64,000 bases of DNA from Nannocystis pusilla (GTDB lineage: Bacteria > Myxococcota_A > Polyangia > Nannocystales > Nannocystaceae), in NCBI RefSeq assembly GCF_051105105.1, contig NZ_CP185339.1, one strand, 5' to 3'. Every line of letters begins with the position of its first letter. Position 1 is the first letter of the stretch. Positions 60-57,851 of this stretch are shown piece after piece. Under the pieces are notes generated by a model, which was not told the origin of the DNA, did not search any database, and saw only the letters and a list, made by a program, of their open reading frames with translations. Both the position numbers and the translations under genes were made by a program.

Positions 60-1372
60 TCACAGGCTGTTCGGGTCCCACCGGCGGTACAGAGCGCAGC
101 AATTGAGGCCGCCGAAGCCGAACGAGTTCTTGACCATCAGGTCGATGCGGTGCTCCACCGCCTTGTTGGCGCACACGTCGAGGTCGACCTCGGGGTCGAG
201 CTCGTCGATGTTGATCGACGGGTGCAGCACGCCGCCGCGCATCTGCAGCAGCGCCGCCACGGTCTCGACCGCCGGCGCCGACCAGCAGGTGTGGCCGAGC
301 ATCGACTTCGGCGCGTTGATCTTGAGCTTCTTGGCGTGGTCGCCGAAGACCTTGCGGATCGCGTTGAGCTCGGACAGGTCGCCGAGCGGCGTGCTGGTCG
401 CGTGGGCGCACACGAAGTCGACCTCGTCGGGCCGCACCTGCGCGCGCCGCAGCAGCCGCTCGAGCGTGCGCGCCTGGCCCTCGGTCGACGGCGACGGCAG
501 GTGGCAGCCGTCCGACGTTCGAGGTGCAGCCGAGCACCTCGGCGTAGATCGTCGCGCCGCGCTTCAGCGCGTGGCCGAGCTCCTCGAGCACCAGCGCGCC
601 GGCGCCGTGCGACGGCACGAAGCCCTCGCGCCGCGAGTCGTAGGGCCGGCTGGCCAGCTCGGGCGTGTCGTTGAAGCTCTCGAAGGTGATGGCGCCGAGC
701 AGCGCCATCGCGTGCACGCCCATCTGCGAGAAGTCGAGCACCGCGCCGACCACCATCGCCATGTCGTGGTCGTGGTGGCGGATCTCGTCGATCGCGTTGC
801 GCAGGGCCACGTTCGCGCTGGCGCACGCGCCCCCGAGCGTGTAGCAGGCGCCCTTCCAGCCGAGCATCTCGCTCACCGAGCCGGCGTGGTCGGTGTCGAG
901 CATGTGCAGCGCCGCCATCGAGTCGATGTAGTCGGGGTCTTCCGTCTGGAAGGTGACGTAGTTGTCGGCGAAGTAGCGCTCGTTGAGGTTGTGGCCGCCG
1001 ACCAGCACCGCGCAGCGGGTCGGGTCCGCGACCTCGACCATGCCGGCGTCGCGCCAGGCATCGGCCGCGCACAGCACCGACAGCGACGTTCGAGAACGGC
1101 GCCTTGTTGCACAGCTGGCGGGCCCGCTTGTGCACCTCGGCCGGCAGCACGTCGCGCAGGCGCGCCAGCTTGGCCTTGACGTCGTACTCCGACAGATCGC
1201 CGCCGATCTTCGAGTACACGCCGTCGTTGTTGTGCCACTTCCAGCGCGTGATCGCCGACTTGCCGGCGACGAGGTTGGCGTAGAAGGTGTCGAGATCGTC
1301 GCCCAGGGGCGTGTTGATGCCGAGGCCGGTGATGACCACGCGGCGGGGCGATTGTGCCTGCGATGAGACCAT
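60..1372 (-). CDS. beta-ketoacyl-ACP synthase (KAS I/II or PKS ketosynthase-like); reading frame broken twice by a 7-nt GACGTTC insertion (possible pseudogene or sequence artefact)
   Basis: N-terminal RRVVITGLGINTPLG and C-terminal DFVCAHATSTPLGDLSELNAIRKVFG...GHTCWSAPAVE...NSFGFGGLNCCAL are KAS hallmarks, but they lie in different frames. Removing the heptamers at 514-520 and 1085-1091 gives a continuous KAS with ...IYAEVLGCTSDGCHLPSPS... and ...PFSLSVLCAADAWRDAG... Confidence 0.8.
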
Positions 1373-1392
1373 GCGTGCTCTTCTGGGGGGAG

Positions 1393-1946
1393 TCAGTCCA
1401 TCAAGTAGACCTCGAACACCGCGAGGGCCTGGACCTCCTCGCCGCGGAGGGCCTGGCCGACGCAGGTCGAGACGTAGTCGCTGTGCTCGAGCGAGCGGGC
1501 GAGCAGCGTCAGCCGGTCGCCCGGGCGAACGCCGCCCTGGAACAGGGCGTGGTGGACCTTGAGCAGCCGCAGGCGCGCCGGCGCGTCCGCGGCGTCGATG
1601 CTGGCTGTCCCTTTGGCCATGAGGTGCAAGAGACAGATCCCGAGCTGCCCGATCGCCTCGACCAGCAGCACGCCCGGGTACACCGGGTCGCCGGGGAAGT
1701 GGCCGGCGAACACCGCGTCGCCGGCGTCGATCGTCCGCACGCCGCGGATCATGCCCGGGTCCTCGGGCGTGCGCGGCAGCTCGACCGCGTCGATCGCGTC
1801 GACGAACAGGAACGGGTCGCGGTGCGGCAGCATGCGCTCGATCGCGGCGCGGCCGAACTCGACCCGCGTGCTGCCCTCTCCGGGCACGAACACGGGCCGC
1901 CGGCGGAGCTGCTTGATCAGCGCGTCGAGGCCGCTCAGCTCGTCCA
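1393..1946 (-). CDS. 3-hydroxyacyl-ACP dehydratase, FabZ/FabA hotdog family (start codon uncertain)
   Basis: LPHRDPFLFVD and HFPGDPVYPGVLLVEAIGQLG match the FabZ catalytic His/Glu region. The start is placed at the GTG that overlaps the upstream acyltransferase stop. Confidence 0.65.
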
Positions 1947-55918: not shown

Positions 55919-56313
55919 GCGGCCCCCCGGACCGAGCGGGCCAGCTCGGCCTGCAGCTTCTCCAGCAGCTGGAGCGCGAGCTCCAGCTGGGTGGTGGTGA
56001 TCTCGAGCCGGTCCTCGGCCCGCCGCAGCTGCGCCCGCACCTCGTTGAAGTCGCCGAGCGTCGGCACGCGCCAGAAGTGCAGGACCTCCTCGGTGAGGTC
56101 GACGACGTTGCGGTGGAGGTGGAACATCTTCTGCAGCCCGCGGCCCGCGAACTTGAGGTAGCGCGGGCTGGTGGCCAGGCGCGTCATGACGCCGGTCGAG
56201 GCGCCCTCGAAGCGCATCCACCACTTGCCGGGGCCGCTCTTGGGGTCGGTGAGGTAGCCGACGAGCCGGAGGATCCGGGCGGTGAGGTTCCTGGGGGCTG
56301 TCTCTTGGGACAT
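55915..56313 (-). CDS. small coiled-coil protein, putative PHA synthase partner subunit (PhaE/PhaR-like) or phasin
   Basis: 132 aa with a coiled-coil C-terminus (...EDRLEITTTQLELALQLLEKLQAELARS). It is translationally coupled to phaC. The assignment is by position only. Confidence 0.35.
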   Translation of the reverse strand: MSQETAPRNLTARILRLVGYLTDPKSGPGKWWMRFEGASTGVMTRLATSPRYLKFAGRGLQKMFHLHRNVVDLTEEVLHFWRVPTLGDFNEVRAQLRRAEDRLEITTTQLELALQLLEKLQAELARSVRGAA

Positions 56314-56326
56314 GGCGAATAAAGTC

Positions 56327-57851
56327 CTATGCGGAGGTGGAGAGCAGGGTCCGCAGCTCGCGCTTGAGGATCTTGCCGGCCGGCGAGAGCGGGAGGGCGT
56401 CGAGGAAGACGACCGACTTGGGGACCTTGTAGCGGGCGAGGTGGTCGCGGCAGCGCTGCAGCAGCTCGGCCTCGCTGGCGCTGGCGCCCGGGCGCAGGGC
56501 GACGACGGCCTTGCCGACCTCGCCCCACTGCGCATCGGGCACGCTGATGACGGCGCACTGGGCGACCGCGGGGTGCTCGTAGAGGATCTTCTCGATCTCG
56601 ACCGGGTACACGTTCTCGCCGCCGGAGATGAACATGTCCTTCTTGCGATCGACGATGTAGTAGAAGCCCTCGGCGTCGCGGCGCGCGAGGTCGCCGGTGT
56701 GGAAGAAGCCGTGCTCGTCGAAGTGCGGGGCGTCGACGCCGAAGTAGCCCGAGCAGGCGGCCGGGCCCTTGAGCACGAGCTCGCCGACCTCGCCGTCCTT
56801 CACCGGGACGTTGTCTTCGTCGACGATCCGCGCGTCGACGAAGTAGTTGGGCCGGCCGATGCTGCCGGCCTTGGCCTCGCCGAACTCGGGCGCGAGCGAG
56901 AAGGCGCCGGGGCCGAACTCGGTCATGCCGAAGCCCTGCTTGAAGGCGACCTTGTGCACCGCACAAAAGGCGCGGATCAGCGGCACCGGCAGCGGCGCCC
57001 CGCCGCTGGTCAAGAAGCGGACGCTGGCGAACGAGGTCGCGGCGAAGCGCGGCGAGTCGAGCATCATCTGGTACTGGGTCGGCACGCAGAACAGCGCGGT
57101 GACCTTGTACTGCTCGATGAGCGCGAGCATGTCGTCGGCGGTCCACTTCTTCATGATCACGACGGTGCCGCCGAGCGTGAGCAGCGGGACCGTGTACACG
57201 AACAGACCGCCGGTGTGGAACATCGGCGTGTGGGTGATCGTGACGTCGCCGCGCTGGATCTCGTGGACCATCGTGTTGAGGGTGTTCCACGCGATCTGGC
57301 GGTACGAGATCCGGGCGGCCTTGGGCGCGCCGGTGGTGCCGCCGGTGAACAGCAGGCAGGCGATGTCCTCGACGTTGACGGCCGGGTTGTCGACCGGGTC
57401 GGCCGGGCCGGCGAGGAGCGTGGCGTAGGCGCTGCTGCCGGCCACGGGCTCGCCTTCGAGGTGGACGAGCTCGGCGATCGCGGTGTGCGGGTGCAGCTCG
57501 GCGGTGGTGGCGGCGAACTCGGGGCCGAACACCAGGACCTTCGGCGCGACCGGGAGGATGACGTTCGACGAGCTCGCGCCAGGGGCTGCGCCAGTTGAGC
57601 GGGACGAAGATCGCGCCGAGCTTGGCGCAGGCGAAGAAGACGTTGAGGACCTCGACGCCGCTGTGGGCCAGGAGCGCGACGCGGTCGCCCCGGACGACGC
57701 CGCGGCCGCGGAGCCACCCGGCGACGGCGTCGGCGCGCCGGTTCAGCGCGGCGTAGGTGAAGCGGCCCGCGTCGCCCTTGGCCACGTCGACCACGGCGAG
57801 GTTGTCCGGCCAGTACTGCGCTCCGCGTCGCATCCAGTCGCCGATGAACAT
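56327..57851 (-). CDS. AMP-dependent synthetase/ligase (acyl-CoA synthetase); frame broken by a GACGTTC heptamer at 57560-57566
   Basis: LLFTGGTTGAPKA (AMP-binding box I) and the GYG/TE region. The N-terminal 95 aa (...KLGAIFVPLNWRSPWRELV) are in another frame; deleting the heptamer gives a continuous ...ELVILPVAPKVLVFGPEFAA... Confidence 0.8.

Follow-up and report, generated by a model that had tools for sequence, protein, structure and literature searches.

A stretch of 64,000 nucleotides (nt) from Nannocystis pusilla (contig NZ_CP185339.1; hereafter the window) raises the question why one heptamer, GACGTTC, stands exactly where conserved genes jump to the +1 frame. An earlier note on this DNA had taken the entire heptamer for an insert, the deletion of which restores a textbook protein sequence. 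Alignment with related genomes reveals the addition of one base only. These extra bases are very probably a systematic long-read consensus artefact of a nanopore-only assembly, with nothing biologically inserted, and the living strain most likely has intact copies of the genes concerned.

A single additional base at the frame breaks

The window was aligned at the nucleotide level with three relatives, N. bainbridge (locus L001), the N. pusilla sister strain GCA_026626665.1 (L002-L006) and strain MIELM, GCA_049060185.1 (L007-L009). At all nine insert-like copies of the heptamer the window contains exactly one extra base. At seven of these sites the relatives display GACGTC where the window reads GACGT[T]C, and the two exceptions, 45829 and 53398, show GACATC in the sister strain and GACGTC in MIELM. 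Events outside the heptamer come from a list, compiled blind, of single bases that the window has in addition to both the sister strain and MIELM. The individual events are as follows (GC3, GC content at third codon positions).

518..519, plus strand: extra T in heptamer 514-520, first ketosynthase frameshift (gene on the minus strand); gacgt-cgag in sister strain and MIELM; GC3 phase 0 to 1; orthologues read LGCTS(T/S)SDGCH
1089..1090, plus strand: extra T in heptamer 1085-1091, second ketosynthase frameshift; identical flanks, one T shorter, in N. bainbridge, sister strain and MIELM; orthologues read APFSTSLSVL
3186..3192, plus strand: garbled AGTAATT versus A-TGATC, comprising one additional base, G to A and C to T; truncates an aminotransferase (minus strand); differs from N. 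bainbridge, sister strain and MIELM
4640..4641, plus strand: extra T in heptamer 4636-4642, non-coding, upstream of the epimerase start; ccttgacgt-cgacgc in sister strain and MIELM
4860..4861, plus strand: extra T in heptamer 4856-4862, epimerase frameshift; one-base gap against the three relatives
27867..27868, plus strand: extra T in heptamer 27863-27869, receiver domain of an NtrC-type regulator (gene on the minus strand); gcgacgt-caggg in sister strain and MIELM
40747..40748, plus strand: extra G, GAGGCTC for native GAGCTC, splits the secretin gene gspD (minus strand); frame switch between ISTE and LGGTAG; not in sister strain or MIELM
45833..45834, plus strand: extra T in heptamer 45829-45835, DNA methyltransferase-like gene (minus strand); GACGT-C in MIELM, GAC-ATC (synonymous) in the sister strain; GC3 phase 1 to 2
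51576..51577, plus strand: extra T in heptamer 51572-51578, MYXO-CTERM-type secreted protein; gcacgacgt-cgacg in sister strain and MIELM
53402..53403, plus strand: extra T in heptamer 53398-53404, first of three events in an esterase/lipase; GACG-TC in MIELM and GACA-TC in the sister strain (four-way alignment)
53560..53561, plus strand: extra T, GGGAT[T]CTCGAA, without heptamer, second lipase event; not in sister strain or MIELM
53669..53670, plus strand: extra T, GGCT[T]CGAG (native CTCGAG), without heptamer, third lipase event, frame restored; not in sister strain or MIELM
57564..57565, plus strand: extra T in heptamer 57560-57566, acyl-CoA ligase (minus strand); gatgacgt-cgacg in sister strain and MIELM

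Because of the one-base gaps and the lengths of the orthologous proteins, the heptamer can be described as the native palindrome GACGTC with one duplicated T. Removal of one T per event gives exactly the orthologue lengths of the ketosynthase (436 amino acids, aa), the acyl-CoA ligase (507 aa), the lipase (503 aa) and the epimerase (364 aa). Removal of seven bases does yield open frames with the expected Pfam domains, as the earlier note had maintained, but the resulting proteins lack two residues per junction in comparison with every orthologue (ketosynthase 432, ligase 505, epimerase 362 aa) and the lipase gene is broken. In the ketosynthase orthologues these two residues are kept at both junctions, APF-ST-SLSVL and LGC-TS-TSDGCH. 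Protein and nucleotide alignments thus agree on a single extra base, and a 7-nt insert was rejected. The repaired ketosynthase is 96% identical to the N. bainbridge protein, and the repaired NtrC-type regulator matches Response_reg, Sigma54_activat and HTH_8.

The GC3 phase moves by +1 exactly at 514, 1085, 4856, 45829, 51572 and 57560 and also changes at 27863, with no movement at the heptamer copies 22421, 39208, 40166, 27305 and 60760. On either side of the breaks GC3 stays at 0.9-1.0, which indicates that the sequence has not decayed. The eight +1 breaks of the earlier note are present, but they are spread over seven genes rather than eight, since the ketosynthase is hit twice. Affected genes lie on both strands, and the ninth insert-like copy (4636) is intergenic; its position upstream of the epimerase start implies that coding status is irrelevant to the placement of the events.

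The lipase gene contains three +T events (53403, 53561, 53670), of which only the one within the heptamer at 53398 had been recognized before. They lie within 270 nt of the open reading frame (ORF) 53237-54751 and sum to +3, with the result that the ORF remains open and is annotated as an undamaged 504-aa protein (XWX07211.1). About 90 codons are read out of frame, yet nucleotide identity to the relatives is ~96% in this part. Without the three bases the protein has 503 aa, as in MIELM, whereas the window protein forms a singleton cluster at 90% identity.

Some events differ from this pattern. The split of gspD by the extra G at 40748 was absent from the earlier list of frame breaks. The patch at 3186-3192 is AT-rich, has its changes at a GATC and displays an error signature unlike that of the +T events; the enzyme concerned is serine-palmitoyltransferase (SPT)/KBL-like. 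Two further window-specific T extensions, ctcT[T]ctgg at 45265-45266 and cgaTT[T]cgac at 60493-60495, the latter again before CGA, lie outside clear coding breaks. Between the stop of a FabA-like gene and the ketosynthase start, a run of six G (1385-1390) is one G longer than in the three relatives; this intergenic run could be a homopolymer error or a real difference.

Number, sequence context and orientation of the heptamer

A string search of the window returned GACGTTC at all ten coordinates of the earlier note and at four that it had overlooked, 22421 and 40166 on the plus strand and 27305 and 60760 on the minus strand. The plus strand thus harbors twelve copies (514, 1085, 4636, 4856, 22421, 27863, 39208, 40166, 45829, 51572, 53398, 57560) and the minus strand two. 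Against this total of 14, dinucleotide-preserving shuffles (n=100) give an expectation of 11.6 +/- 2.8, with 25 of the 100 shuffles reaching 14, and an overall enrichment of the heptamer was consequently rejected. The earlier chance estimate of two or three copies was too low because the window DNA is ~72% GC. The only unusual feature of the set is the split of 12:2 between plus and minus strand. Orientation on the plus strand holds for all nine insert-like copies, but not for the window as a whole. Seven of these nine are directly followed by GA, in agreement with the earlier observation. Three plus-strand copies are native or presumed to be so.

22421..22427, plus strand: GACGTTC, presumed native; no GC3 phase change; outside the aligned loci of the relatives
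39208..39214, plus strand: GACGTTC, native, in frame in gspE; identical in the sister strain; no GC3 phase change, in line with the earlier assignment
40166..40172, plus strand: GACGTTC, native, in frame; identical in the sister strain; no GC3 phase change

With 29 GACGTC sites left intact in the window, the events affect only part of the available sites. Within the extended context GACGTCGA 7 of 13 sites are affected (~54%), versus 2 of 25 (8%) among other GACGTC sites (Fisher p=0.003), and the hottest context is GACGT/CGA, with the slash marking the point of insertion. However, an intact GACGTCGACG site at 2757 shares the local context of affected sites, and a deterministic effect of local context was therefore rejected. 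The elevated rate at GACGTCGA in combination with the intact site at 2757 suggests a stochastic process whose rate depends on context. Nine of the 13 gene- or frame-disrupting +1 events fall inside GACGTC, a sequence that makes up ~0.4% of the window. Such recurrence in one context is far above chance, as would be looked for in a consensus artefact of Oxford Nanopore Technologies (ONT) sequencing. Single genes are hit repeatedly, the ketosynthase twice and the lipase three times.

All nine events at GACGTC have the form GACGT[T]C in the orientation of the window. The inserted base in gene-disrupting events is T in 11 cases and G in two, and never A or C. As GACGTCGA is not palindromic, its mirror TCGACGTC is the proper comparator, and here none of 6 sites is affected, versus 7 of 13 for GACGTCGA (Fisher p=0.044). 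These counts lend moderate support, and not more, to a real one-strand bias. Although the record of MIELM is oriented opposite to the window, T outnumbers A among its own non-homopolymer deletions (15 versus 5, in CTC/GTC/CTTC/GTTC contexts) when these are read on the same physical strand as in the window. As far as one 64-kb window can show, the bias might thus be tied to the genome strand or to a local k-mer skew rather than to the plus strand of the assembler; the string pair that bears on a genome-strand versus a software origin is GACGTTCGA / TCGAACGTC.

Origin of the assembly and rival explanations

All ten intact window ORFs compared (10/10) are identical to proteins of one N. pusilla NCBI record (XWX07178-XWX07217). 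Accession CP185339 is Nannocystis sp. UBH4, a single contig of 12,213,092 bp with 11,265 coding sequences (CDS) (Pokharel et al. 2025, PMC12766979). In that study all isolates were sequenced on MinION R10.4.1 and processed with Guppy v6+, Flye 2.9.2+ and medaka 1.11+, and the word 'Illumina' occurs nowhere in the text. Given this pipeline, the window represents a nanopore-only assembly without short-read polishing, the setting that an ONT consensus artefact presupposes.

Five deposited proteins are exactly equal to the frameshifted window ORFs. XWX07211.1 (504 aa) is the lipase ORF that reads through all three +T sites; the epimerase XWX07179.1 has 299 aa versus 364 aa in other genomes, the ligase XWX07214.1 has 401 aa versus 507 aa in at least ten genomes, the secretin GspD XWX07202.1 has 336 aa versus ~805 aa in other Nannocystis, and the aminotransferase XWX07178.1 has 362 aa versus 418 aa. 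Deliberate disruption or later editing of the sequence, which the earlier note had considered together with an assembly artefact, is thereby excluded. Its preference for an assembly artefact over a biological insertion, on the other hand, agrees with the nanopore-only origin, with the intergenic copy at 4636, with the disregard of gene strand and with the absence of the variants in N. bainbridge, GCA_026626665.1 and MIELM. At the genes concerned, the other Nannocystis genomes compared encode full-length proteins, save for those with their own unrelated frameshifts or truncations.

A consensus artefact would come about as follows. At a subset of T-before-C sites one spurious base would enter the consensus, turning GACGTC into GACGTTC and shifting the frame by +1. 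Reads of one strand would mis-call the k-mer, possibly owing to a strain-specific base modification overlapping GACGTC/TCGA; support for the insertion would then come close to the decision threshold, and the polisher might take the insertion at some sites and refuse it at others. Systematic R10.4.1 errors have been traced to base modifications; they are confined to a single strand and are not removed by polishing with medaka or Racon (Liu et al. 2024, PMC11610603). Residual errors after Flye and medaka have been tied to methylation motifs, heteropolymers and locally high GC, with large differences between strains and with polishing at times adding errors (PMC12392509). The errors described in these two reports resemble the UBH4 events in that they occupy a short motif, are strand-specific at read level, persist after medaka, vary between strains, lie mostly in coding sequence and break annotation. 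The artefact is supported by the combination of one-base events in heteropolymer context, their independence of strand and coding status, their absence in relatives, multiple hits per gene, the lack of decay and an error-prone pipeline.

Several points weigh against this explanation. It presupposes a disagreement between reads and consensus. Substitutions (C-to-T and G-to-A) rather than insertions make up most of the modification-linked R10.4.1 errors published so far (PMC11610603), whereas in UBH4 a T is duplicated before C and only one patch (3186) is of substitution type. An excess of G-to-A or C-to-T changes was not found (17 and 11 window-specific cases, respectively, versus 12 and 22 specific to the sister strain), and a literature search gave no relevant report of nanopore or methylation errors at a GACGTC motif. 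The one-strand bias (11 T and no A; TCGACGTC 0/6) is without a demonstrated software explanation. Finally, MIELM originates from the same study and the same stated pipeline, but displays no +T at any GACGTC of this region; the same artefact is not present there, and deletion-type errors are found instead. The cause of the extra bases would accordingly be specific to the UBH4 strain or to its sequencing run.

The behavior of MIELM also bears on what could trigger a consensus artefact. A k-mer bias of basecaller and polisher in very GC-rich DNA, without any DNA modification, is one variant of it and is possible, if short of probable. Such a bias is in accordance with the known ONT errors in heteropolymers and GC-rich regions and the errors added by polishing (PMC12392509), with the missing excess of the substitutions typical of methylation and with the grading of the rate by extended context. 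However, MIELM shares the k-mers and the stated pipeline and has no extra T, which indicates a cause in the strain (such as a modification) or in the sequencing run (its kit, model version or coverage), and the patch at 3186 combines G-to-A and C-to-T at a GATC, changes typical of modification errors. Alternatively, UBH4 but not MIELM might have a DNA modification overlapping GACGTC/TCGA, e.g. an AatII- or TaqI-type methylation or a partial or strand-asymmetric mark, that triggers the T insertions; this suggestion is tentative and, on present evidence, rather unlikely. The methyltransferase-like gene of the window can not explain a strain-specific effect, because it is conserved in all strains. 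Homopolymer-length errors, which likewise are single-base indels that cause frameshifts and split genes, occur in the sister strain and MIELM (CCCC to CCC, 4999-5002). In contrast, UBH4 doubles a lone T inside heteropolymeric sequence, and its long homopolymers look correct.

Readings in which the extra bases are real or functional fare worse than a consensus artefact. That UBH4 underwent very recent +1 mutations, by hypermutation at the T/C step in GACGTC/TCGA on one replication strand, and now carries many true pseudogenes, is very unlikely. The events are indeed present in the deposited sequence, the strand bias could follow the replichore, given that errors in MIELM are T-biased on the same physical strand despite the reversed record, and the sum of +3 in the lipase superficially looks like compensation. 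But at least 13 events in 64 kb would amount to roughly 2,000 or more genome-wide; they would affect the ketosynthase twice and also the secretin, the sigma-54 regulator and the ligase, while the compared Nannocystis are full-length except for their own unrelated lesions. Moreover, GC3 and the 96% orthologue identity are kept on both sides of the breaks, the ~90 out-of-frame lipase codons are just as well preserved in nucleotide sequence, and the assembly is nanopore-only.

Still less credit, to the point of being negligible, can be given to a 7-nt micro-insertion element or transposon footprint. It owes its appeal to the recurrence of one string at eight frame breaks and to the following GA at seven of nine copies, which resembles a target-site duplication (GAC-GTTC-GAC) as known from miniature insertion elements or their excision footprints. 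However, six of the seven bases are native and common to relatives, which have GACGTC between identical flanks; a short element would be recognized by a multi-base sequence without counterpart at empty orthologous sites, and here only one base is extra. Furthermore, proteins obtained by deletion of 7 nt lack two residues, and +1 events of the same kind are also seen away from the heptamer. The new kind of element put forward in the earlier note is therefore dismissed. A recoding signal at GACGTTC, be it programmed +1 ribosomal frameshifting or another one, is equally far-fetched. As at programmed sites such as that of prfB, all events are +1 changes at a recurring short sequence. Yet neither a conserved site nor a consistent sense-strand sequence was found: the messenger RNA would read GACGUUC or GAACGUC depending on gene orientation, the copy at 4636 is intergenic, the native copies at 39208 and 40166 leave the frame unchanged, and the orthologues, none of which has the event, are in frame and full length. 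Two further candidates were rejected. A phase-variable contingency locus would require a repeat tract, whereas T becomes TT in a heteropolymer, and cutting with subsequent fill-in at GACGTC was discarded by reasoning, as symmetric cuts in a 6-bp palindrome give 0, 2, 4 or 6 nt and never +1.

Related assemblies, neighboring genes and consequences

The assemblies of the sister strain and MIELM carry frameshifts of their own, mostly one-base deletions. The window sequence CCCC at 4999-5002 reads CCC in both, which splits the epimerase gene in either genome. Over the ~50 kb where MIELM and the sister strain both align to the window, MIELM displays 74 strain-specific one-base deletions, which fits the inflated number of CDS (14,925) in this genome. 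One cluster at 90% identity mixes glucose-6-phosphate isomerases (PGI; 529 aa; window 7545-9357) with MATE transporters (471 aa; 9401-10816). The two families are probably bridged by fused PGI-MatE ORFs that result from frameshift errors, 717 aa long in sister-strain locus L002 and 1015 aa long in MIELM locus L007.

A further observation concerns window positions 1-5800 and positions 11320-16919 of the N. bainbridge locus. The genes of the ketosynthase, the FabA-like dehydratase, an acyltransferase, the SPT-like aminotransferase and the epimerase adjoin, in relatives, those of a ketoreductase, an HMG-CoA synthase, two enoyl-CoA hydratases, two short-chain dehydrogenases and an acyl carrier protein. 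Judged by gene content, the set is predicted to be a lipid or polyketide-like cassette that is conserved and includes beta-branching enzymes.

Within 64 kb, the 'complete' sequence CP185339 has 13 or more single-base errors that disrupt reading frames. Simple extrapolation would yield about 2,000 or more genome-wide, a number that fits the raised CDS count of UBH4. Proteins that are truncated or in part out of frame have already entered GenBank, RefSeq and UniRef (XWX07178.1, XWX07179.1, XWX07202.1, XWX07211.1, XWX07214.1 and their WP_4344157xx counterparts), and pan-genome and gene-cluster analyses based on CP185339 will miscount genes. Where genome scans reveal a recurring string at frame breaks, orthologous sites should first be compared for the number of extra bases.

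For the biology of the organism the events carry little weight, as the genes of lipid synthesis, secretion and regulation and those related to polyhydroxyalkanoates (PHA) are very probably intact. If a DNA modification overlapping GACGTC/TCGA did turn out to be the trigger, the errors would indirectly record an as yet uncharacterised epigenetic mark of a myxobacterium, which might be asymmetric with respect to the replication strand.

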